Source: Tepidisphaerales bacterium (GTDB lineage Bacteria; Planctomycetota; Phycisphaerae; Tepidisphaerales; Tepidisphaeraceae). From it: a DNA stretch of 64,000 bases. How positions within the stretch are numbered: position 1 is the first letter of the stretch; the number at the start of each line of letters is the position of its first letter. Where the stretch lies: positions 1-64,000 of the forward strand of contig JBBQNJ010000012.1 in the NCBI GenBank assembly GCA_038329845.1. The letters are read 5' to 3'. The notes beneath the pieces were generated by a model. It searched no databases, was not told the DNA's origin, and saw nothing but the letters and a program-made list of their open reading frames with translations. Positions 3,884 through 63,116 of the stretch are shown piece after piece. A program made the position numbers and the translations under genes.

Positions 3884-4798
3884 TTAATGGCGACGGCAGG
3901 CGACCAGGGCTAGGGCGGCGAGGCCCAGAACGCCAAGCGAGGCCGGTTCGGGGATCACTTCAATGGTGCCGGTGGTGCCGGTGAAGGTGCCGGTGCCGTA
4001 GGTGTTGAGCTGGGCGACGGTGTAGGTGCCGTTGGAGAGGTTGTTGGCGCCGATGCTCAGGGCATCGACGATCCAGTTGTAGGTGTCGACGGCGATGGTC
4101 CCGCCAGCGACATTGAGGGAGGCCGGGGCGTTCCAGTTGCCCTGAATTTGCAGGGTTCCGCCGGTGATCCAGACATCGCCGTTGCCGACGGCACCGGCGT
4201 TGGAGAAGACCAACTTCCCTTTGACCATTTTCCAAGTGCCGGAAAAGGTGTTGGCGGAATTAGCGATGGTGGCGATGGAAGTGTTGTTGCTGGAGTTGAT
4301 AATAAGTTGGGCCGACCCGGTGACCTGGGCGCCAAAATTGAAGTGGCGGTCCTCGCTGGCGTTTCCGGGACTCAGCGTCGAGTCGCTCAGGACGGTGATC
4401 TTGCCGTTGAGGGTCTGGGTTCTTCCAGCCCCGCTGGTAAAGGCGGAGATCATCGCTCCGTCGAGCCGAAGATCGTTCACGGTATTCGTGTACGACTTGT
4501 CATTCGATGACTTCAGCGCCAGCGTGCCCCGGATGGTGAGCGAATCCCCGGCGAAGGTCGAGTTGCCGGCCTCAGGGGTTCGGATGACGTAGGTTGCGGG
4601 GTTGATGTAGTCATTGCCAGACGAAGCGGCCCCGTTGGGATTCCATATGGAAGTCGCGGTCCATCCGGCGGAAACGGCGCTGCCTTGCGACTCATCCTGG
4701 TAGATGGTCGCGGCCGGGGAGGATGGCGCAGTGCCAATAACGAGGGTCGCGCCCAAGGCGCAGGCCAACAGCGAATGCAATCGGCTAAAACGGTCCAT
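3884..4798 (-). CDS. Secreted PEP-CTERM sorting-domain protein with an Asn/Thr/Gly-rich beta-strand repeat body.
   Basis: N-terminal signal peptide. C-terminus VIPEPASLGVLGLAALALVACRRH is PEP motif + TM helix + basic tail. Confidence 0.75.
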   Translation of the reverse strand: MDRFSRLHSLLACALGATLVIGTAPSSPAATIYQDESQGSAVSAGWTATSIWNPNGAASSGNDYINPATYVIRTPEAGNSTFAGDSLTIRGTLALKSSNDKSYTNTVNDLRLDGAMISAFTSGAGRTQTLNGKITVLSDSTLSPGNASEDRHFNFGAQVTGSAQLIINSSNNTSIATIANSANTFSGTWKMVKGKLVFSNAGAVGNGDVWITGGTLQIQGNWNAPASLNVAGGTIAVDTYNWIVDALSIGANNLSNGTYTVAQLNTYGTGTFTGTTGTIEVIPEPASLGVLGLAALALVACRRH

Positions 4799-5073: not shown

Positions 5074-6225
5074 TTACTCCCCTTCGCGTTGGATGGTTTG
5101 GAGGATTTCCTGCGCCAGGTAAATGCGATTGCGCTTTTGGCCGGTCAATTCGTTGAGAATGCCGGCGGTGAGAAGTTTGTCGATGGCCTTCTGAGCCGAA
5201 CTGAACTGCACATTAAGGATCTGGGCGGCGTGGCTGGTCGTGATGGCCGGATCGATGAAGAGCTGATCCACCAGCGTTGGAAGCAAGGCGGAGGCTCGGG
5301 CGGTGCGCACCCGGCGCTGATATTCGGTTCGCAACAGGTCCAGCTTCTGCACTCGGTCCATCGCATCGGTGGCTTCATGCGCCACGCCGCGGGCGAAGAA
5401 GGTCACCCATTGATTCCACGTCCCGCGCTGGCTGACGTTTAGGAGATGGCGGTAGTATTCGGCACGGTGTCGTTCCAAAAAGGCGCTGGGATTCAGCAGG
5501 GGCACGGGCAACACTTTCTGGGTACCCAGCAGCAGCAGGATGAGTACGCGCCCGATGCGCCCATTGCCATCGGCGAACGGGTGAATGGTTTCAAACTGAT
5601 AGTGGATCATTGCCACGCGGGCCAGAGGCGGCAGAGGGCTGGGTGAACGAATGAATTGTTCCAACTGCTCCATCGCCGGGCCAACTTCGTGCGGCGGGGC
5701 GGGGACAAACGTGGCGTCGGCGATATTGTTCGTGCGTCCGATGTGGGCTTGAACCGAGCGAAAGCGCCCGGGTGTTTTATCTTCCCCGCGTGCATCCTGC
5801 ATCAGAAGCTGGTGCATTTCGCGGATCAGGTCCAGACTGATGGGCCGATGCTGGACCTGTGCCAGGCCCCACTCCAAGGCGCGGAAGTTGTTGTCCACCT
5901 CTCGCACATCGGGGGCACGCTGTTCGGCCGACCGCGTCTGATCGAACAGCACCAGGTCTTTTAGACCGGCGTGGGTTCCCTCGATGCGACTGGACAATTC
6001 CGCTTCGCGGCGCAGGAATGACCGGACCAGCAGCGCGGGATTGGGAAGGCGTTGGCCGACGCCGGCGAGCTGCCCGATCGCCCGATCCGCCGTCGACAGA
6101 GCCGAGACCAGTTCGTCCGACCAGGAAAGCTTGCCCGGCAGCGGAGAGGGGACGAAGCACCAATCGCCGCTGAGATTGCGGACCAGCTCGCCGGACTTGT
6201 CGTCGGTGAAATCAGTGATTTGCAC
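5074..6225 (-). CDS. Fic-family protein (class II, with an intramolecular inhibitory helix) and a C-terminal wHTH-like tail. GTG start.
   Basis: Fic motif HPFADGNGRIGR. Upstream SSRIEG matches the (S/T)xxxE(G/N) inhibitory motif. Confidence 0.85.
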   Translation of the reverse strand: MQITDFTDDKSGELVRNLSGDWCFVPSPLPGKLSWSDELVSALSTADRAIGQLAGVGQRLPNPALLVRSFLRREAELSSRIEGTHAGLKDLVLFDQTRSAEQRAPDVREVDNNFRALEWGLAQVQHRPISLDLIREMHQLLMQDARGEDKTPGRFRSVQAHIGRTNNIADATFVPAPPHEVGPAMEQLEQFIRSPSPLPPLARVAMIHYQFETIHPFADGNGRIGRVLILLLLGTQKVLPVPLLNPSAFLERHRAEYYRHLLNVSQRGTWNQWVTFFARGVAHEATDAMDRVQKLDLLRTEYQRRVRTARASALLPTLVDQLFIDPAITTSHAAQILNVQFSSAQKAIDKLLTAGILNELTGQKRNRIYLAQEILQTIQREGE

Positions 6226-6269
6226 GCGTGGACCTCAGCCCAATTGCACTTGACCGAAATAACGATCTT

Positions 6270-6282
6270 CTTATTTCACTTT
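6270..6282. repeat. 13-bp perfect direct repeat CTTATTTCACTTT, right flank of the fic gene.
   Basis: See 4998-5010. Confidence 0.6.
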
Positions 6283-6383
6283 ATAGCATTTGAGTGTAGT
6301 AAAAGTTTTCTGGGCTGCAAGCGTCACGTCGCAAGTTCGGCCCGTGACATGGCTTGGGAAGTTGCTCGGGTCGTCGCGACGGG

Positions 6384-6965
6384 CTATCGGGAGATTTGAG
6401 GGAAAGCGCCGTCGGGGCGGGCGAGGACTTTCATGATCAGGGGGTCGCCGGGGGTTTGGGGTTCGTAGGCGGCGATGGCCCATCGCATGCCGGCGTGGGC
6501 GGGGGTGGGATCGTAGACGATGTAGCGGACGCTGGGATCGGTGACGCGAAGGCCGACGGGGTCGTAGATGTAGGGCAATCCCGACACCGGACAGGTCAAT
6601 TCGGGCAGAACGGTCTCGCCCGGTTGGGTTGTGGGCAGGGTGGGCAGGTCCGACAGATGCTCGGGCAGTTCGTGTCGCATGGCGTAGTAGAGGAGCAGGC
6701 CGCCGCAGATATCGTGCAGTCGCATGGCGCAGGGGTCGGTATTGGAGAGCTCGGTCGGGGGGGTGGATTTAGCGGGTCGGGGCGGCGTTTTGGGGGCGCA
6801 TCCGGCGGCGATCGACGCCGCGAGCGTCGCCGCGATGATCGTAAGGGCGATTCCTCCCGATCGGCGAGGCGGCTGAGGATCGAGGCATCCCGATCCGCGG
6901 GGCGGGTGAGGATCGAGGCCGCGGGAGCGATGATATTCGGGGCGTTGGGCCACGATGTGAATCAT
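6384..6965 (-). CDS. Hypothetical lipoprotein, last gene of the pseudopilus operon.
   Basis: Hydrophobic stretch followed by lipobox …LAASIAAGC. ATG overlaps the hydrolase stop (ATGA). The longer track ORF 6384..7355 has a Pro/Arg-rich N-terminus judged artefactual. Confidence 0.55.
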   Translation of the reverse strand: MIHIVAQRPEYHRSRGLDPHPPRGSGCLDPQPPRRSGGIALTIIAATLAASIAAGCAPKTPPRPAKSTPPTELSNTDPCAMRLHDICGGLLLYYAMRHELPEHLSDLPTLPTTQPGETVLPELTCPVSGLPYIYDPVGLRVTDPSVRYIVYDPTPAHAGMRWAIAAYEPQTPGDPLIMKVLARPDGAFPQISR

Positions 6966-8050
6966 ACGCGAGGATCGGGGTCGGGGGGAATGAGGGATCG
7001 AATAAAGTCTTCGACGCGGCGGGCGTAGCCCTGGGGGTCGATGGCCAGGCCCATGACGTGGCGAGCGTCCGGGACGGTCCAGGAGATGGCCTGGGCGCAG
7101 TCGGGCGGGCGGGATTGGGCCGCGTCGATCAGGCGCTGGCGGTCGCGGGGGGGAACGAAAGTGTCGAGTTCGGCATGGATCATCAGCAGAGGGCAGGGGA
7201 CGGTGCGCAGCAGGTCTACGGGGCGGACCTGATTGAATCGAACTGCCCAGAGGGACTTGGCCAGGGCCAGGGCGGGTCGAAGAAAGAGCATCCCCGGGGC
7301 TCCGATGGCGTTGGCGTGGGAGATCGCGGCGCTGGGGAAGTCGGGGTAGGGGCATTCGAGGATCAGGGCGGCGATGTCGCGGCGGATGGCGGCGGTCGCC
7401 AGGGCGACGGCAGCGCCGAGGCTCACGCCGAACAGCAGCAGGGTTCGGGTGGATTGCGGGCGCTGGGCGTGAAGCTGGTCGATGACCTGCATGAGGTCCC
7501 AGCGCTCGCAGTCGCCGGCGGTGCAGATCGAGCCGTCGCTTTGGCCGTGGGCTCGCAGGTCGATCGCCAGGACGTTGAATCCCAGGCGATGCATGAGCGG
7601 GGCCCAGGCGATGGCGCCGACTTTGGCGTCGGAGAACCCGTGCAGGAGGATCGCGGTGCGATCGCTCGAGGGCGGTCCAGGTGAGGCGGGGGCCTCAGCC
7701 ACAGTGGCGTGCGGCAGGATCGCGGTGGGATCGCTCGAGGGCGCGGCGGCATGTTCGGGCGCTGAGGCGGGGATCCACCACCCCGCGATATGCAGATAGC
7801 CTCGGGCGGGGGGCGGGATGGCGTGGTCGGGGCAAGGGCCGCGACGATTTTCGATGCGGTATTCGACGGGTTGATAGTCCAGGTCCAGGTCCGCCGGGGA
7901 GAGCCGGCCCAGCAGGGCCAGAGCGCGGCCGTCGCTCATTCGCGGTGGGCGGAGCAGCAGGCGCATTATTCCCGCGACCGCCGCGATCCATGCCAGTGCG
8001 GCGACCGCGAGCAGCACCGCCCCGAGCGAGAGGATTGTCGCGCCGTTCAC
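6962..8050 (-). CDS. Alpha/beta-hydrolase fold protein (esterase/lipase-like) with an N-terminal TM anchor and Pro-rich linker. Contains an internal ~60-bp tandem duplication.
   Basis: HG motif LLHGFSD, nucleophile elbow GVSLG. N-terminal hydrophobic helix. Duplicated peptide SSDPTAILPH / SSDRTAILLH. Confidence 0.75.
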   Translation of the reverse strand: MNGATILSLGAVLLAVAALAWIAAVAGIMRLLLRPPRMSDGRALALLGRLSPADLDLDYQPVEYRIENRRGPCPDHAIPPPARGYLHIAGWWIPASAPEHAAAPSSDPTAILPHATVAEAPASPGPPSSDRTAILLHGFSDAKVGAIAWAPLMHRLGFNVLAIDLRAHGQSDGSICTAGDCERWDLMQVIDQLHAQRPQSTRTLLLFGVSLGAAVALATAAIRRDIAALILECPYPDFPSAAISHANAIGAPGMLFLRPALALAKSLWAVRFNQVRPVDLLRTVPCPLLMIHAELDTFVPPRDRQRLIDAAQSRPPDCAQAISWTVPDARHVMGLAIDPQGYARRVEDFIRSLIPPDPDPRV

Positions 8051-8196
8051 GGTGCGGAGAGTACCGTAAAACGCGGGGCAGCGCCAGGCAGGTCAGTCGA
8101 GGCGAACATCGTCGCGCAGGCGGACATCGTCGCGCAGGCGGGCGTCGTCGGGAAGGAAGTTCAGGGTCGAGTCCGCGCGGGGCAGCGCCAGGTGGG

Positions 8197-8654
8197 TCAG
8201 TCGAGGCGGACATCGAGCAGTCGCCAGCGGTCGCCGTCACGGGTGAAGGTGAGGGTCTGACTGGCTCGGCGGCCGGTGAGTCGGGCATCGAGGAAGACGA
8301 CCCGCGGGTTGGAGGCGGCGGAGAAATCGGCGGTGAGGGTCGCGCCTTCGTCGGCGAGGATCGCCGGCAGAGGCAGGGAAACTCGACCGATGGCGTGGGC
8401 GGCGGGGGGGCTTGGATGTGGCGGGCACCTGCGAGCAGAAGCTGGCGGAGCTGGGCATCGGCCTGGGCCGTGAGGGTTCGGCGGACGTCGGTGGCGATCA
8501 GCGACGCGATCGCGGCGGCGGCGACGGCGATGAACAGGAGGATCGCGAGGGCGGTAAGCATGGCGAAGCCGCGCGGTCGAAGGGGCGCCGCGGGCCGCTT
8601 GGGCGCGGCGGGCCACTTGGGCGCGGGGATCGAGTCAGCGCGTCTTGCCGTCAT
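8197..8654 (-). pseudogene. Third small pseudopilin-like or T2SS accessory gene. A -1/+1 frameshift at a G7 (C7 on the coding strand) tract near 8404-8410 joins two ORF-track frames.
   Basis: N-terminal frame (from ATG 8654, ATGA overlap with the upstream stop) encodes RGFAMLTALAILLFIAVAAAAIASLIAT…. A plausible C-terminal domain (…ILADEGATLTADFSAASNPRVVFLDARLTGRR…RLLDVRLD*) is in the other frame. The switch point coincides with the homopolymer. Confidence 0.5.
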
Positions 8655-9124
8655 GGGCGGTCTCCTTCCAGAAGTCGGCGTTGGCTGATCAGCAGAATGT
8701 CCGCGGCGGGCGAGGTGGTTGGATTCGCCAGTCGCAATGTCATCCCTGCTTTCGAGACAGCGAATGACCAGTGATGATGCTCATCGGGCCAGCGATAATC
8801 CTGTTCGCCGGGTCTCGTCGCGGCGCGGGAAAGTTCGCCGGGGGCGCTATGCCATCGGACGATCCCGGACGGAGTTGCCAATCGGAGGGTCTGGCCGGTT
8901 TCGAGAGTGAGGGCGGTCGCCGACCAGACATCTCGCCGCAGCATCGCCAACGCCGAGTCGCCCGCGGCGAGGGTCGCCTGTTCGCTGTCAGCCTGGCGCA
9001 TGAGGCGCACGGCGGCGGTGAAAAGCCTGCCGCAGATGCCCAGAAAAATCATAATCAAAGCGAGGGTCATGATCATGTCGAGTAGAATCAAGGCGCGGTT
9101 GGATCGGTGCGGGCGAGGGATCAT
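8651..9124 (-). CDS. Small pseudopilin-like protein (prepilin-type N-terminal hydrophobic segment with an atypical leader).
   Basis: MIPRPHRSNRA|LILLDMIMTLALIMIF with an acidic residue at +5. ATG overlaps the upstream stop (ATGA). Confidence 0.55.
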   Translation of the reverse strand: MIPRPHRSNRALILLDMIMTLALIMIFLGICGRLFTAAVRLMRQADSEQATLAAGDSALAMLRRDVWSATALTLETGQTLRLATPSGIVRWHSAPGELSRAATRPGEQDYRWPDEHHHWSFAVSKAGMTLRLANPTTSPAADILLISQRRLLEGDRP

Positions 9125-9543
9125 GGGCGGGCCTCCTGTTTGGCCGGACGACGGCGTGGGTCGCCGCGACCGGTTTCGAGGGGCACACCGCCCAGCGCCG
9201 TCGCCGGTGCCAGCCCCACCAAAGGCGGCGAACCCGGGCTGGTGGGAACCGTCACGCGGACCCAGGTGTATCCCGGCGGCGCGGGATCGACCAGGCGACG
9301 GACATCGATCGAGGCGTCGAGGTCCGCAGCGGCTTCGCCGGCGACCAGGCGCGTCATGGCCGACTCGACAGCGCGGGTTGCCTGTTGGGAAACGTCGAGA
9401 GCGGCGGCGGCCTTTCGATGCCATCGGGCGGCGTTGGCCAGCAGCAATGCCATTAACGCCACGAGGGACAGGGCGATGATCACATCGACGAGGAACAAGC
9501 CTTTGCGGCAGCGACACTGGGGGCGATGGAGTTTTGAGTTCAT
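9121..9543 (-). CDS. Small pseudopilin-like protein (prepilin-type cleavage/methylation-like N-terminus).
   Basis: MNSKLHRPQCRCRKG|LFLVDVIIALSLVALMALLLA: Gly then hydrophobic segment with Asp at +5. Immediately downstream of gspF. Confidence 0.6.
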   Translation of the reverse strand: MNSKLHRPQCRCRKGLFLVDVIIALSLVALMALLLANAARWHRKAAAALDVSQQATRAVESAMTRLVAGEAAADLDASIDVRRLVDPAPPGYTWVRVTVPTSPGSPPLVGLAPATALGGVPLETGRGDPRRRPAKQEARP

Positions 9544-10790
9544 CGGAGTGCTCCCATGTCCAGACTCAGGGCGTCGATCATTTTGATCAACGGCAGAAAA
9601 AGTGCCAGCGCGACGGCGGCGACGAGGGCTGCGAAGAACAGGATCGTCAGCGGGGCGATCATGGCCGCGAGGACTTCGCGAGCGCGGTTGAATCGCAGCG
9701 CGTAATAGCTTGAGAGATAGCGGAGGGTTTGGGGGACGGTGGCGGTGGCCTGGGCGCTGGCGAGCAACCCGACGGCCAGGGCCGGCAGGCGTGCGGCGCG
9801 GGCGGCGTCGGCGATGGCCGCGCCGTCGGAGAGCGCGCCGGACCAGCGGGCGATGCGCCGGCGGAGCATCAGGTTCACCGGAAGCTGCTCGGCTTCATAG
9901 AGCGCCTGGTCGAGGGGTCGATGAGCCTCGAGGGCGTCGGCCATGACGCCGAAAACATCGCCGAGTCCGCGATCACGTTCGACGACGCGAGTGGGCGTGA
10001 GTGCCCAGAGCAGGCGGTCGGTGAGGGATCGTCCGTAGCGTGCCGCGGGCCAGCCGGGGAGAAAGACTTCCCACAGTCGCACGCCGACGAATCCCATGAT
10101 GATCAGGGCGATGAGGCCAATGAGTGCCGCCGGGGCCCAGTCGGGAAGGGACATGATGGCCTGGGTGGGCGCGGGGATCGGCAATTCGAAGTCGTCAAGA
10201 AGCCGGTGGTATTTGGGCATCACGAAGATGCTGATCATCCCCACGATCGATGCGACGGAGAGGATCATCGCCAGCGCATAGGCGCGGTAGAAAGCGCCGC
10301 GCTGCTGCGAGGGCTGGTCCGGTTCGAGATTTTCTTGAACGATTCTGGCTAGTGCCGCGGGAAGTTGCCCGGAGGCCTCGGCGCTGCCGATCAGGGCCAC
10401 GGTCCGCGGAGAGGCTTCGGGGACGGACATTTCCAGCGCCTGCTGGACCGGGCGGCCTGCGGTCAGGCGCGCGGCCAGGCGGAACAGGCGCTTGCGGGTG
10501 GTTCCCGATTCACCGTTGGCCGCCGCCGACAGCATCGTCGGCAACGGGAGGTTCAAGTTGACCGCCTGCTCGAGGTATCCCAGTACCGCCGCGGCTCGGC
10601 GGCGGCGCAGGCTTCGCGTCGAGACCACCAATAGGCCGATCAGCAGGAGCAAGCCCAGAGGGAACAGATAACCGGCGAGGATGGGCGGGGCCGGACCGAA
10701 GACCGCGACGATCCAGGTCAACACGAGCGTGATGGCGCCGAGTCCGACCCACACGCCCACCGCGAAGAAGCGTACCAGCCAGGCGGGCAT
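9540..10790 (-). CDS. gspF: GspF/PilC-family inner-membrane platform protein, paralog 2.
   Basis: ~416 aa with three hydrophobic blocks and the duplicated GspF-domain architecture. Adjacent to a second GspF paralog and gspE. Confidence 0.75.
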   Translation of the reverse strand: MPAWLVRFFAVGVWVGLGAITLVLTWIVAVFGPAPPILAGYLFPLGLLLLIGLLVVSTRSLRRRRAAAVLGYLEQAVNLNLPLPTMLSAAANGESGTTRKRLFRLAARLTAGRPVQQALEMSVPEASPRTVALIGSAEASGQLPAALARIVQENLEPDQPSQQRGAFYRAYALAMILSVASIVGMISIFVMPKYHRLLDDFELPIPAPTQAIMSLPDWAPAALIGLIALIIMGFVGVRLWEVFLPGWPAARYGRSLTDRLLWALTPTRVVERDRGLGDVFGVMADALEAHRPLDQALYEAEQLPVNLMLRRRIARWSGALSDGAAIADAARAARLPALAVGLLASAQATATVPQTLRYLSSYYALRFNRAREVLAAMIAPLTILFFAALVAAVALALFLPLIKMIDALSLDMGALR

Positions 10791-10791
10791 T

Positions 10792-12030
10792 TTAGAAACC
10801 GCCTCCGCTGACGCTGCGTAGCAGCCACAGAAGCGGCGCGAACATCGCCAGGATCACCGCCACGATGATCAAGCCGATCACGATCAGCAGCAGCGGGGAG
10901 AGAATCGCCGGGATGGTGGCGATGCGATGCTGGGCCTGCTGCTGGTACATCCGCGAGAGGGTGGCGAGGGTTTGCGAGAGGCTGTTGCGTACGGCGGCGA
11001 TGGACATCGCGGCGATGACGGTGGGTGGGATTGCGCGCAGGTGAGTGGCGGCCGCGGCGAGCGATTCACCGCGCATCATCGCCTCGTGTAGCACTATCGC
11101 GTCGCGGCGCAGCACCGGGGTGGCGACGGCGTCGGCGGCGAGGTCAAGCGATCCGGGCAGGTCGATCCCGGCGTCGATGCCGAGGCGCATCGCATCGCAC
11201 CAGCGGGCGAGTCTCGCCTTCTGGACGATGCGCCCGATGAGCGGAAGATGAACGAGCAGTTGATCGCCCAGATTGATCCCCATCATCGCGAGAATCCACA
11301 CGCCGAGGATGCATACGACCAGGGCCGCGGCGACCACGGCGCTGATCAGGGGCAGGCGATGGGCAAGGTAGAAGAGGGTCCCGGTGAAGGCGGGCACCTG
11401 CGTTCGGAACCCCTGGAAGATCTCTTCGAAGCGCGGGACGACGTAGAGCAATAGAATGGCCATGACTCCGATCAACGTCGCCAGCACCGCGACGGGATAG
11501 GCCATCGCCCGCCATAGGGCTTGGCGAAGGCGAGCGATCATTTCCAGGTGGGCGCCGAGATTCAGCAGCATTTCCGGCAGTCGGCCGGAGCGGACGCCGG
11601 CATCGACCAGGCGGGCATACAGTCGCGGGAACTGGGCGCGGTGATGCTCGATCGCTTGGGGCAATGACACACCGCGATCCAGCTCATCGCAGACCTGCGC
11701 CACCGAGCGGGCCAGGCGGCCGCTGCGCATGTCCTGGGCGATGAGGCGCAGGCCCTGCTCCAGCGGCATCCCGGCCTGGGCCAGGCTCGCCAGTTGCTGA
11801 TTGAATGCAGCGAAATCGGCGCCGCGGATCGGCCGGGGTCGCGGCGGCGGGTCGGCGGGGATCATCTCGATCACGCGAAGGCCGAGGGACTCGAGGCGAA
11901 GGCGCGCCGTGTCCATGTCGGCGGACTCGATCGTGCCGGATAGCGGCGCGCCGTCACGCGATTGGGCGTGGTAGGAGAAGTTCAGCGGCGCGGGTGGGGG
12001 GTCGGGAGTATCGTCAAGCATGGGGATCAC
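10792..12030 (-). CDS. gspF: GspF/PilC-family inner-membrane platform protein, paralog 1.
   Basis: 412 aa, cytoplasmic N-domain + TM helices typical of T2SS/T4P platform proteins. Directly downstream of gspE. Confidence 0.8.
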   Translation of the reverse strand: MIPMLDDTPDPPPAPLNFSYHAQSRDGAPLSGTIESADMDTARLRLESLGLRVIEMIPADPPPRPRPIRGADFAAFNQQLASLAQAGMPLEQGLRLIAQDMRSGRLARSVAQVCDELDRGVSLPQAIEHHRAQFPRLYARLVDAGVRSGRLPEMLLNLGAHLEMIARLRQALWRAMAYPVAVLATLIGVMAILLLYVVPRFEEIFQGFRTQVPAFTGTLFYLAHRLPLISAVVAAALVVCILGVWILAMMGINLGDQLLVHLPLIGRIVQKARLARWCDAMRLGIDAGIDLPGSLDLAADAVATPVLRRDAIVLHEAMMRGESLAAAATHLRAIPPTVIAAMSIAAVRNSLSQTLATLSRMYQQQAQHRIATIPAILSPLLLIVIGLIIVAVILAMFAPLLWLLRSVSGGGF

Positions 12031-12075
12031 CTTGGGTCATCTGGGATTCCTCGCGCGGCGTCGGCGATGGCATCG

Positions 12076-13245
12076 TCAGGCATGGACGTGACCTCGGGTC
12101 ATTTGGGATTCTTCGCTCGGCGTCGGCGCTGCGGGGTTTGTTTCGGGCGGGCCGAGGACGCGAGAAACTTCGGCGTGATCGGTGATCCCTCGGGCGACCA
12201 GGTCATCGGCGGCTTGACGCAATGGAACATAGCCGGTCAGGCGCTGCGCCGTGCGGCGCATCGCATCGGCATCGGCGCGGTCCAGGATCAGTTGTCGCCA
12301 GGCCGGGTCCATCGCCGCGAGTTCGGCCAGGGGGGTTCGCCCGGCGTATCGTGCTGTGCCATCGGCGCTGGCGAGGCGACGGATCAGCCGCAGCGCCAGC
12401 ACGCCGTGGACGGCGCTGGTGAGCTGATAGGGCGCGATGCCCATGTCGAGCAGGCGCCCGACGGCGCCGGCGGGGTCGGAGGCGTGCAAGGTGCAGAGCA
12501 GGCGATGGCCCGACAGTGCGGCCTGGATCGCCAGGGCGGCGGTCGCGGCGTCACGGATTTCGCCGAGCATCAAGACCTGCGGGTCCTGGCGAAGAATACT
12601 GCGCAGAGCCCGCTCGTACGTCAGTTCGCCGAAGGGGGAAACTTCGATCTGTGTTATGCCGTCGAGCCGGCGCTCGACGGGGTCTTCGAGGGTGATGATG
12701 CTCAGTCCGGGATGCGTGTCGGCGATCAACTTGAGGAGGGCGTAGAGGGTGGTGGTTTTGCCCGAGCCGGCCGGGCCGGTGACGATGAGCATCCCGGCGT
12801 CGGCGGCGGCGTATCGGCGCAGCGCCGCGACGATGGGGGAGGGCAATCCCAACGCATCGAGAGATCGCGGTGCGGTCAGCTCGGCGGGCAATCGCACCAC
12901 CGCCCGAAGGCCGTGGGCGGTGGGGATCACCGCGAGGCGCGCCTCGGCGGGCTGGGTCGATCCCGGCGGGGCGGGGATGGCGAGGCGTCCTTCCTGGGGG
13001 ATGTCCTGGCGGTAGGTGAGCAACTGGGCCATGACCATCAGTCGGTTGACCATGGCCCGCCCGGCGGCGGCGGAATGGCGCTGGGCGGTCTCGACCAGCC
13101 CATCGACGCGAAGGCGCAGCTCGTATCCTTGCGCCGTCGGCTCGACGTGGATGTCGGAGGCCCGGCGGCGCATCGCCTCGATCAGCAAGCTCTGGAGAAT
13201 CTCCGGAGCCTGCGTGTCGCTCGCCGAGGATGCTGACGATCGCAT
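12076..13245 (-). CDS. gspE: Short GspE/PilB-family secretion ATPase (N2 + C-terminal ATPase domains only, no N1 domain, no tetracysteine motif), ComGA-like.
   Basis: Walker A GPAGSGKTTT. N2 motifs ASDIHVEP…RLRVDG. Asp box and His box context (ILRQDPQVLMLGEIRD). Confidence 0.85.
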   Translation of the reverse strand: MRSSASSASDTQAPEILQSLLIEAMRRRASDIHVEPTAQGYELRLRVDGLVETAQRHSAAAGRAMVNRLMVMAQLLTYRQDIPQEGRLAIPAPPGSTQPAEARLAVIPTAHGLRAVVRLPAELTAPRSLDALGLPSPIVAALRRYAAADAGMLIVTGPAGSGKTTTLYALLKLIADTHPGLSIITLEDPVERRLDGITQIEVSPFGELTYERALRSILRQDPQVLMLGEIRDAATAALAIQAALSGHRLLCTLHASDPAGAVGRLLDMGIAPYQLTSAVHGVLALRLIRRLASADGTARYAGRTPLAELAAMDPAWRQLILDRADADAMRRTAQRLTGYVPLRQAADDLVARGITDHAEVSRVLGPPETNPAAPTPSEESQMTRGHVHA

Positions 13246-13330
13246 CGAGACATTGTACCACAGTCCGCGGCACGCGCCCCGACTCGGCGAACGGGGGCAC
13301 CCGAGCGTAAATTTGCTGTCTTTTCTGTTG

Positions 13331-13378
13331 TTGCACTGGACCCCGCATCGCCGTGGCGGGTATCGGCGCCAAAAGGCG
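13331..13378. promoter_or_regulatory. ~47-bp conserved motif (TGCAsTGGmCCyyGCATCGCCGTGGCGGGTATCGGCsCyArAAGGC) upstream of the gspE operon. A second copy is at 15314-15360.
   Basis: ~85% identical copies lie in two different promoter regions. Adjacent TCTTTTCTRTTGT motif also at 15365 and 15430. Confidence 0.4.
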
Positions 13379-13406
13379 AAGCGACTCGACGAAACGTTAT
13401 GAAGAG

Positions 13407-14873
13407 CTACGTCCTGCTCAGTCTCGTCATCGAATCGCTGGCGGCGAGCGTCGCATCATCGCCCGCGTCTTTCTGCCACGCCTGCAGTTGCCGATGCAGA
13501 TCGGCCAGGCGCGCGCGCTGCTCCGGCTGCGCCGCGAGGTTGTGTCGCTCGCCGGGATCGGTGTTCAGGTTGAACAGTTCCAGTTCGCCAGTGTTGGTAT
13601 AGTTGCTATATCGCCAGCCATCGGTGCTGATGATGGTGCGGCTGGCCACTGTGGGCATGTCCTGTACGATAACGCACGGTGAGGCATCCGCTCGCACATC
13701 AATCGCGCGGCCGGTGTTGCTGGCTTCGCGCAGCAGCGGTGCCAATGACCGCCCATGCAGCCCTTCGGGCACATCGGCGCCAAGAAGGTCGAGCAGCGTC
13801 GGCATCAGGTCTATCTGGCTGATCGGCCCGCCGAGTCGGGCTGCGCGGCGCTGGCCCGGCAGCCGGATCAGCAGGGGTACCATCGTCGCCTCGCGATACA
13901 GCGTGCTCTTTTCCAGCAGGTGATGGCTGCCCATCATCTCGCCATGGTCGCTGCTGAACACGACGATCGTGTTCTCCGACAGGCCCTGTTGCGCAACCGT
14001 GTCGAGAATGCGCCCGATGTGCGTATCGACCAGCGAGCACAGGCCCAGATATCGCGCGGTCAACTCGCGCCAACCCGCTTCGGTGTTCAGGTCGTGGTCT
14101 TGGTAGCCGTCACGGCGGTACCGCTCGAGCCGATCGCGCGTCACCTGGGGAAGTAGCGCCGTTTCGTGTGGAACGGCATCGGGCACGTGATTGAAGTTGC
14201 TGAACATCGGCACCGCCGCCTCGTCGTACTGCCCGTCGCGGCAACTGTGGAATGGCATGTGTGGTTCGAGGATGCTTACCGTCAACATCCACGGCCGGTC
14301 GCGGTGCTGGCGGATGAACTGGCACGCATGATCGGCCAGGAACCGCGGCTTGCAGTAGTGTTCGGGCAGTTGGCTGGCGAACGCCCGCGGGAACACATCG
14401 CGCACGCCCAGCCGGAAGCCTTCGCTGAGCAGGTAGTGGTGGTAGTCGCTACGATCGCGCCTGTCACGCTTGCTGCTGAAGTGGTTCCAATAGATATCCT
14501 CGACGGACACGAACCGTTCATAGCCGTGCTGGGCATACAACTCATCGCCGAGGTGCCACTTCCCGTGATACTCGACGCGGTAGTCGCGGCGCACATCCGG
14601 CGGAAGACACTCGGGCAGACAGCGCGCGTCTTGGCGCAAGGGAATGTTGTTGTCTGTCGCCCCGTGAGCGTGCGGGTACAGCCCGGTCATTATCGACCCG
14701 CGCGACGGCGTGCATACCGGGTTCGTGCAGTATGCCTCATCGAACACGCACGACGAGTCAGCCAGCCGATTCAGATTCGGCATCGCAGCGTAGTCATTGC
14801 CGTAACACGCCAGCGTGTCGCGGCGTTGCTCGTCGGTAAACACGAACAATAAATTCGGCCGGTCGCTTTTCAT
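13407..14873 (-). CDS. Sulfatase (arylsulfatase family, Cys-type) with no obvious signal peptide.
   Basis: N-terminal LLFVFTDEQRRD and the CTPSRGS (C-x-P-x-R) formylglycine motif. Starts MKSDRPN with no hydrophobic leader. Confidence 0.85.
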   Translation of the reverse strand: MKSDRPNLLFVFTDEQRRDTLACYGNDYAAMPNLNRLADSSCVFDEAYCTNPVCTPSRGSIMTGLYPHAHGATDNNIPLRQDARCLPECLPPDVRRDYRVEYHGKWHLGDELYAQHGYERFVSVEDIYWNHFSSKRDRRDRSDYHHYLLSEGFRLGVRDVFPRAFASQLPEHYCKPRFLADHACQFIRQHRDRPWMLTVSILEPHMPFHSCRDGQYDEAAVPMFSNFNHVPDAVPHETALLPQVTRDRLERYRRDGYQDHDLNTEAGWRELTARYLGLCSLVDTHIGRILDTVAQQGLSENTIVVFSSDHGEMMGSHHLLEKSTLYREATMVPLLIRLPGQRRAARLGGPISQIDLMPTLLDLLGADVPEGLHGRSLAPLLREASNTGRAIDVRADASPCVIVQDMPTVASRTIISTDGWRYSNYTNTGELELFNLNTDPGERHNLAAQPEQRARLADLHRQLQAWQKDAGDDATLAASDSMTRLSRT

Positions 14874-62348: not shown

Positions 62349-63116
62349 TTACGGCTTCCGGTCCCCGTAGGTATATCGCGCCCACGTCCAGAAGCCGGAA
62401 TAGGGGTTGCGATTGCTATAAATGCTATACGACGAAGTGTATCCCGGATACACCTTCACCTCCGACCACGGGATCCACATCGCCGAGCCGTCCTGGAAAC
62501 CGGCGCAGATACCGCCGCGATGACCGAACTCCGAATTCGCCAAGTTGTTCGGGTCGGTGATGTAGTCGGCCACGAGGATCGGCGAAACGTTTCGGGCCGA
62601 CTGGGCGCCGACGAGATACAGGTTGGCCCGCGTGCGCTGGGCGGGGTTCGGGTTATTCAGGTCGTTCCACCCGATAGCCGTGCAGAACTTGCCGCAGTAG
62701 GTGGTGTACGTTTCGTTCTTGCTGGTCGGGTTCTTGATGATCTCGTTCAGGACGTGGCCGGGTTGCCGCCAGTTCCAGGTGGGCGTGGACGCCGGGCAGA
62801 ACGGGACGCGCGGGTCGGCGGACATATACTTCCAGTACATCAGCGCCCCGATCCCCTCGATAATCGGGGTGTTGCTCTTGATACGGTCGAGCCAGGAACC
62901 ATCGGTATTCGGGTAGATTTTGACCTCCTGGGCATACATGGTCGCGGCCAGAACGATCTGGCGCTCGTTGCTCAGGCAGGAGATTCGCATCGCCGTTTCG
63001 CGGGCCTTCATCAAGGCCGGTAACAAAATAGAGATAAGAACGGCGATAATGCCGATCACCACAAGCAATTCGACAAGGGTAAACCCGCGAATCCGGTCCA
63101 GTTTCGATGTCTGCAT
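62349..63116 (-). CDS. Prepilin-type N-terminal cleavage/methylation domain protein of the planctomycete DUF1559 family.
   Basis: Canonical [27 protein letters not shown]-terminal H-x9-DG-like region ([15 protein letters not shown]). Confidence 0.85.

Follow-up and report, generated by a model that had tools for sequence, protein, structure and literature searches.

A compact run of eight genes in a planctomycete genome raises the question of what kind of filament machine it encodes and how far that machine extends. The genes lie on the minus strand, from 13245 to 6384, of a 64,000-nucleotide stretch of a Tepidisphaerales bacterium (assembly GCA_038329845.1, contig JBBQNJ010000012.1, positions 1 to 64,000; hereafter the window). 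An earlier note, made from the sequence alone, read them as a pseudopilus operon resembling the competence (Com) pilus and systems for type II secretion (T2SS), with a hydrolase and a lipoprotein at its end. All eight were found as open reading frames (ORFs) in one direction, and a frame plot of third-position G+C content (GC3) backs all of them as coding. Based on the comparisons below, the Com/T2SS-like core stands and can be sharpened to the order E-F-F'-I-J-K: an assembly ATPase, two GspF-type platform proteins (F1 and F2) and three pseudopilins (D, E and F). We propose, with a probability of about 0.62, that these six genes make up the minimal core of a type IV filament machine, self-contained and conserved by vertical descent, related to T2SS and to the Gram-positive Com pilus, that has a tip set of its own and receives the rest in trans.

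Gene order, motor ATPase and platform

The six-gene order was followed through related loci, which came from look-ups of gene context and from an ATPase-seeded genome scan, their six-frame ORFs being searched with the window proteins; a metagenome scan seeded with a four-sequence F2 alignment added 29 loci. The ATPase-seeded loci come from Phycisphaerales, Tepidisphaeraceae, Phycisphaeraceae and the isolate 'Planctomycetales bacterium ZRK34'. The order ATPase-F1-F2-D-E-F is found in loci L003, L008, L009, L010 and L014 and in every metagenome locus that is long enough (L034-L037, L039-L044 and L047), and the short contig L002 carries the 3' end of F1 followed by F2-D-E-F. In L011-L013, the small ORFs after ATPase-F1-F2 are more divergent. 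Over more than 20 genomic and metagenomic loci, the first six genes keep their order as a cassette, in Phycisphaerae and Tepidisphaeraceae where a taxon is given. The cassette is also abundant, with thousands of ATPase relatives (6,653 matches at E ≤ 1e-20 among 8,000 candidates scored) and 370 representative clusters of its J-like pilin, pseudopilin E, all of ~145-165 aa (exhaustive HMMER search, E ≤ 1e-3). The best 120 ATPase relatives are all 347-397 aa long and 60-67% identical, and some belong to named Tepidisphaeraceae or Phycisphaerales.

Within the window, the eight genes had been described as chained by 4-nt start/stop overlaps. ATGA overlaps of this kind occur at four of the seven junctions (F2/D, D/E, E/F and hydrolase/lipoprotein), and the description fails at the other three, where gaps of 45 nt (ATPase/F1), 1 nt (F1/F2) and 146 nt (pseudopilin F/hydrolase) are present.

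The ATPase gene (12076..13245, minus strand; 389-aa ORF) encodes a GspE/PilB-type protein (Pfam T2SSE, 1.6e-82). A 370-aa product on record in an NCBI-sourced collection (P0016) fits a TTG start 19 codons after the first ATG of the ORF. In comparison with the solved structure of Vibrio EpsE lacking N1 (4kss), the ATPase aligns at residues 20-299 and then at 339-402, and this jump from 299 to 339 indicates that N1 is absent and that a zinc subdomain of ~35 residues is deleted. Both losses extend through the family: the identical zinc-subdomain deletion is present in 17 homologues of 350-390 aa, none of which has a Cys motif, and Walker A, the Asp box, Walker B and the His box are invariant among them. 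The ATPase is accordingly short, with the N2 and C-terminal domains only and without zinc-finger cysteines, as had been read from the sequence. Against the NCBIfam models it scores 313 bits for GspE (cut-off 630), 271 for PilB (676), 206 for ComGA (300) and 135 for PilT, and only 33 bits for a TadA-type model. Close ATPase orthologues of 61-64% identity in L004-L007 stand alone, the 10 kb around them containing neither platform nor pilin genes; in L005 and L006, a DUF1559 prepilin gene and an Flp-type gene lie near the ATPase gene.

Two tandem GspF paralogues follow, as the earlier note proposed, each with two T2SSF domains. F1 (10792..12030, minus strand; 412 aa; Pfam T2SSF x2, 1.7e-39) has the N-domain, two cytoplasmic T2SSF domains and three hydrophobic transmembrane (TM) segments of a full-length GspF. 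It matches positions 1-397 of the 401-position NCBIfam GspF model (TIGR02120) at 204 bits, and F2 (9540..10790, minus strand; 416 aa; Pfam T2SSF x2, 1.3e-18) matches it at 76 bits, the cut-off being 424. For ComGB (cut-off 240), the scores are 125 bits for F1 and 41 bits for F2. The two proteins share 25% identity over 325 residues. F2 has five hydrophobic segments, and its N-domain is replaced by two extra TM helices followed by RRRR; in the family alignment, its orthologues carry one or two N-terminal TM helices and conserve R-RR, LNLPL, Tyr171 and Pro380. Very few matches to F2 were returned by a word-based search. In a rough neighbour-joining tree without support values, F2 forms a separate clade, which is joined by the second GspF of distant multi-GspF loci. 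This pattern suggests that F2 originated from an old GspF duplication.

For the PulF trimer channel, a Tyr-Pro pair in the first TM segment (TMS1) and a Glu-Pro pair in the third (TMS3) have been highlighted (PMC10790770). The corresponding residues are AYP and SP in F1 (~176-178 and ~377-378) and AYA and AP in F2 (~170-172 and ~379-380). The TMS1 Tyr is retained in both paralogues. The TMS3 position is Ser in F1, Ala in F2 and variable in the F2 orthologues; with SP in F1 and AP in F2, the proposed channel Glu (PulF E370) is thus missing from both. PulF is trimeric, and for TadB/TadC a trimer of heterodimers has been put forward (PMC10790770), by analogy with which a mixed platform of F1 and F2 is plausible. 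If the paralogues do form one, they would provide a natural test case for the GspF/PilC trimer model and for motors without GspL/M or PilM/N/O.

Pseudopilins and the filament subunit

Each of the three small ORFs begins with a short basic leader, then a G or A and ~20 hydrophobic residues. In the public gene calls examined, these genes lack a Pfam family or show only a weak ComGE match. Pseudopilin D (9121..9543, minus strand; 140 aa) has the N-terminus G↓LFLVD, where the arrow separates positions −1 and +1, with Asp at +5. Its family (19 sequences) has the pattern R-[G/A]↓F-x-x-x-D; residue +5 is Asp in 18 members and Glu in one.

Pseudopilin E (8651..9124, minus strand; 157 aa) reads A↓LILLD in the window and departs at −1 (A, family G) and at +5 (D, family E) from its family consensus RR[G/A]↓FTLIE, in which +5 is Glu in 124 of 144 sequences. 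Among these 144, NCBIfam models for the GFxxxE domain, ComGF and GspJ match 92, 90 and 70, respectively. The E profile matches the N-terminal helices of the solved type IV pilins geopilin (6.5e-5), PilA (6.7e-4) and MshA (3.4e-3). An AlphaFold model of the window protein, built with the family alignment, has a mean predicted local distance difference test score (pLDDT) of 93.5 and consists of a 58-residue helix and eight strands. The model matches XcpW/GspJ/EpsJ, that is, it has a GspJ-like fold; a Foldseek search of this confident model against the PDB returned only noise (best E 0.04).

Pseudopilin F (8197..8654, minus strand; ~152 aa once a frameshift is corrected) starts G↓FAMLT. Its family has the N-terminus G↓FATxx, no acidic residue at +5 and a conserved DAQLRQLLLAG motif, and nine of 13 members match positions 2-50 of the NCBIfam GspK model (best 2.4e-6). 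Searches of the D and F profiles against PDB sequences gave nothing significant, GspI reaching E 0.94, and a homologue search with a concatenated D+E+F alignment gave no matches. The I-like gene is thus followed by the J-like and then the K-like one, an order shared with gspI-J-K and with comGE-GF-GG. Collectively, the N-terminal motifs, the profile matches and the structure prediction of E bear out the prepilin-like nature of the three proteins, and on this sequence evidence we assign D, E and F as pseudopilins, probably of the I-J-K type, under which the three small genes could receive names.

A tip set requires us to ask where the bulk of the filament would come from. One answer is that the cassette is complete alone, with D as the major subunit of a thin pilus, at the position that comGC takes after comGB, and E and F as the only minor pilins. 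D is indeed the first pilin gene past the platforms, its ~115 residues make it small like ComGC or geopilin, +5 is acidic in 19 of 19 sequences, and the 8-10 kb around the Phycisphaerae-type cassettes hold no further canonical prepilin gene. The profiles point the other way: the NCBIfam GspI model is matched by 11 of 16 D members (best 2.5e-4) and ComGE by 8 of 16, but GspG by only 1 of 16. The I-J-K order likewise points to a tip complex, and distant relatives have a DUF1559 prepilin in the operon. We therefore consider a D filament unlikely.

The other answer is a subunit encoded elsewhere. The earlier note had found no secretin, prepilin peptidase or major pilin in the window. In a Pfam scan of 29 window ORFs (nine of the region and 20 selected large ORFs elsewhere, smaller or unselected ORFs lying outside the scan), neither a secretin nor an A24 prepilin peptidase was present, in agreement with that statement. 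As to the pilin it does not hold, because a canonical prepilin-type gene lies at 62349..63116 (minus strand), 49 kb from the cassette; its product reads RG↓FTLVE and has N_methyl (4.2e-7) and SBP_bac_10 (5.7e-5) matches in Pfam, being an N_methyl + DUF1559 protein. This DUF1559 prepilin is a candidate major subunit acting in trans, its link to the cassette being inferred only. No GspC, GspL or GspM was found among the scanned ORFs or in the annotated flanks of L003, and the same was true of GspD; PilT and PilM-Q were absent from the operon and the scanned ORFs, and comEA, comEC and dprA from the annotated neighbours. The operon has no major subunit, no GspH/ComGD-type pilin, no peptidase, no GspL/M or PilM/N/O and no secretin, so these parts are either absent or supplied in trans.

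In more distant multi-GspF loci, a DUF1559 prepilin is encoded within the operon or close to it. In L051 it follows two small pilins, in L053 it lies 3 kb upstream, and in L062 (6174-14448) a prepilin with N_methyl and DUF1559 comes, within one operon, after a single ATPase, three GspF paralogues in a row and three small proteins. Such loci allow a wider, speculative reading, which we hold to be improbable as yet: that cassettes with GspE-GspF-GspF', sometimes with three GspF, are a distinct Planctomycetota-wide filament class with a hetero-oligomeric platform, which polymerises the expanded DUF1559 'pilin-like' proteins. Planctopirus limnophila has 68 DUF1559 prepilins, two of them essential (PMC10632474). 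The cassette may thus point to a machine that handles many planctomycete DUF1559 prepilins, proteins of long-open function.

The window copy of pseudopilin F is out of frame. Its reading frame shifts at a C7 run (8412-8406, minus strand), as observed from GC3 frames and translation. The frame before the run encodes the pilin-like N-terminus, and the frame after it aligns with the C-terminal part of an intact 144-aa homologue in L002; together, these observations indicate one gene with a frameshift. With one C added, or with a −1 slip, the gene would again encode a GspK-like protein of 152 aa. The sequence through the site is the same in an independently assembled Logan contig (L001), where the gene caller left the region empty, although both assemblies may derive from the same reads. 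Slipped-strand mispairing with phase variation, a pseudogene or an assembly error common to both could each account for the frameshift.

The pseudogene case can be extended to the whole locus, as a decaying remnant with a pseudogenised cap pilin and foreign genes inserted downstream. The frameshift in two assemblies agrees with this, as do the non-consensus −1 (A) and +5 (D) of the window E and the replaced TMS1 Pro of F2. In contrast, the remaining five genes are intact, their catalytic motifs being invariant, and a single-base change in C7 is equally expected of phase variation or of an assembly error that shared reads would carry into both assemblies. Decay of the locus is doubtful. Frameshifts also break up genes in related loci, namely those for the ATPase, F1, F2 and E in L014 (9971-14894) and that for F2 in L003 (13299-14482); in both assemblies, which have long contigs, these are probably long-read indel errors.

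Comparison with described filament systems and a proposed assembly

The usual classification of type IV filament machines distinguishes T2SS, type IVa pili (T4aP), type IVb pili, mannose-sensitive haemagglutinin (MSH) pili, Tad, Com and archaeal systems. The scores of the cassette stay below every curated cut-off set for T2SS, T4aP, Tad and Com, and the view that it fits none of these textbook layouts is upheld by the profile searches.

The cassette resembles T2SS in several respects. The ATPase and F1 score best on the GspE and GspF models, the order is E-F-...-I-J-K, the E model matches XcpW/GspJ/EpsJ, and pseudopilin F lacks an acidic +5 like GspK and matches the GspK N-terminus. In contrast to T2SS, the cassette operon has no GspC, D, L, M, G or H, and it contains a second full-length platform paralogue. 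Its ATPase lacks both the GspL-binding N1 and the zinc subdomain, and its K-like protein has ~150 aa rather than ~320 aa.

Another resemblance is to the Com pilus (ComGA-GG), and one explanation makes the cassette a DNA-uptake pilus, the diderm counterpart of ComGA-GG. Both have a short, N1-less ATPase, which is ComGA-sized here, and a compact single operon without an alignment subcomplex or secretin. Furthermore, the minor pilins match in the same order, D to ComGE and E to ComGF (90 of 144), as in comGE-GF-GG. The scores, however, fall short of the cut-offs (ComGA 206 of 300, ComGB 125 of 240), and the ATPase and F1 score higher on GspE and GspF. There is no equivalent of ComGC or ComGD, the first pilin gene matching ComGE/GspI and not ComGC, and comEA, comEC and dprA are missing from the annotated neighbours. 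Com has one platform and the cassette two. The host is a diderm planctomycete, whereas Com hosts are monoderm. A DNA-uptake pilus of the Com type is quite improbable on this balance.

Like Tad/Flp systems, the cassette pairs a single ATPase with two platform paralogues. TadB and TadC, however, have half the size and one T2SSF domain each, whereas F1 and F2 have two domains each, and the cassette pilins carry G↓FxxxE/D-type N-termini and not the Flp type. Tad and T4aP identities were rejected on domain architecture and scores (PilB 271 vs 676; TadA-type 33 bits).

The closest published category is the 'generic' type IV filament of Denise et al. 2019, operationally defined by an ATPase, a platform and pilins that fit no specific model (PMC6668835). 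The cassette has a GspE/PilB-family ATPase, a GspF/PilC-family platform and pilin-like proteins with a class III signal, and it belongs there, although this category is a bin for unassigned systems and not a described system. Planctomycetes occur zero times in that text, 'two copies' is absent from it, and its passages on duplication concern TadB/TadC and ATPases (PMC6668835). Transposon sequencing of Planctopirus limnophila identified a T2SS-like operon, Plim_0401-0410, with six planctomycete-specific hypotheticals; nine of its ten genes are essential in the tables, and Plim_0409 is unclear (PMC10632474). Like the cassette, this planctomycete operon unites GspE/GspF-type genes with lineage-specific small hypotheticals. 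Its composition differs (GspE, PilT-like, GspE, one GspF and six hypotheticals), the two having been compared by layout only. No description of the cassette was found in the literature, where strain ZRK34 is mentioned in unrelated contexts only. The cassette is so far uncharacterised. Its E-F-F'-I-J-K arrangement joins an ATPase stripped in the manner of Com to an I-J-K tip set that resembles T2SS and to a full-length platform present in duplicate.

Under the reading as a minimal filament core, a hexameric GspE-type ATPase without the N1 and zinc subdomains would drive a membrane platform built as a mixed oligomer of two different full-length GspF paralogues, F1 and F2. The N-terminal membrane anchor of F2 might substitute for the missing GspL/M or PilM/N/O scaffold and so offset the lost anchoring of the N1-GspL type. 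D, E and F would be processed by a prepilin peptidase encoded elsewhere and would form a tip complex of the GspI-GspJ-GspK type that primes filament growth, with F, which has no Glu/Asp at +5, as the cap. The bulk subunit would come from elsewhere in the genome, N_methyl/DUF1559 prepilins like that at 62349-63116 being the most plausible source. Gene content, the conserved order, the domain losses, the pilin signatures and the GspJ-like fold are what the data show; the hetero-oligomeric platform, the tip complex, the in-trans major subunit and the cellular output are what we infer beyond them.

Several points weigh against this proposal. It is based on sequence and predicted models for all members. 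The identities of D and F rest on sub-threshold profile matches, gene order and N-terminal motifs, and the single-sequence AlphaFold model of D, a long helix with a hairpin, is of low confidence (pLDDT 64). Within the loci examined, a major pilin, a prepilin peptidase and a secretin are not tied to the cassette. Some related genomes (L004-L007) carry the ATPase as an orphan. With pseudopilin F out of frame, the window copy of the system may be off, phase-variable or mis-assembled. Finally, a simple scan of the spacer after the pseudopilin F gene revealed no terminator-like site, so that the hydrolase may be co-transcribed with the cassette.

Downstream pair and surrounding genes

Whether the last two genes belong to the machine can be judged from their own features and from the related loci. 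The hydrolase gene (6962..8050, minus strand; 362 aa) encodes an alpha/beta hydrolase with Pfam matches to Hydrolase_4 (8.5e-16) and Abhydrolase_1/6, a GVSLG nucleophile elbow and one N-terminal TM segment, which confirms the TM-anchored enzyme read from the sequence. The anchor looks uncleaved, unlike a typical secretion signal. The next gene (6384..6965, minus strand; 193 aa) is translationally coupled to it by the 4-nt overlap at the hydrolase stop. Its product has no Pfam or NCBIfam match, and its signal-like segment ending in ...IAAGC is lipobox-like, in keeping with the putative lipoprotein that the earlier note described.

Between the cassette and the hydrolase lies a spacer of 146 nt (8051..8196). 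It contains a 40-nt direct repeat at 93%, in which 8072-8111 copies 8176-8215, the last codons and stop of pseudopilin F, and beside this copy an 18-nt tandem repeat at 8100-8135. The two duplications look like a scar of recombination or rearrangement.

The earlier note had suggested a dedicated secretion or surface-display module, with the co-transcribed hydrolase as cargo, in which the lipoprotein would serve as pilotin or partner. Substrates are sometimes encoded within T2SS loci, the genes share one strand with no terminator-like site between them, and the hydrolase and lipoprotein genes are translationally coupled to each other, all of which would suit such a module. The related loci speak against it: among the 11 that reach at least ~1 kb past the third pilin gene, none has a homologue of either gene beside the cassette. 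Different genes occupy that place, among them PilZ (L002 and L037), those for an aldo-keto reductase in L003 and a response regulator in L008, in L010 a secreted protein of 126 aa followed by an ORF whose likeness to SecA was read from the N-terminal sequence only, and in L041 a glycine-zipper protein followed by a multi-domain phosphotransferase system protein. Moreover, the spacer with its 40-nt duplication of the pilin gene end marks a rearrangement junction, and the single N-terminal TM anchor does not resemble an export signal. The suggestion of a dedicated module is thus very improbable and is not retained. We regard the hydrolase and lipoprotein as unrelated neighbours and not as cargo of the cassette; they are probably a separate two-gene unit that came to lie downstream of it through a rearrangement in this lineage. 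In one locus, an ORF that weakly matches the alpha/beta hydrolase of the window (E 1e-4) is located just upstream of a short Prosthecobacter ATPase gene (L019, 9007-9825) and probably reflects generic fold-level similarity.

Some related loci carry regulatory genes around the cassette. PilZ-domain homologues follow the third pilin gene in L002 (2850-3323) and L037 (7029-7586), which hints at cyclic di-GMP control of the system in some lineages. A sigma-70 protein of the extracytoplasmic function type, of ~300 aa with regions 2 and 4 and a C-terminal extension, is encoded in L003 (11122-12036), L037 (1004-1891) and L039 (5672-6568), either in the ATPase-F1 interval or just upstream of the ATPase; it is not present in the window. 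L008, L040 and L048 also have inserts of ~1-1.6 kb.

Promoter and terminator scans gave no informative site in or around the window operon. On one side, the operon is flanked by genes for a PEP-CTERM protein (3884-4798, minus strand; Pfam) and a Fic family protein (5074-6225, minus strand; Pfam, in the L001 gene table), and on the other by a gene at 13407-14873 (minus strand) that looks like a sulfatase by sequence alone. None of these three is tied to pilus biogenesis. The G+C content is 0.67-0.68 over 6001-14000 and 0.59 and 0.62 in the adjoining 2-kb blocks; the rest of the window is mostly at 0.62-0.66, with one block near 57 kb at 0.69.

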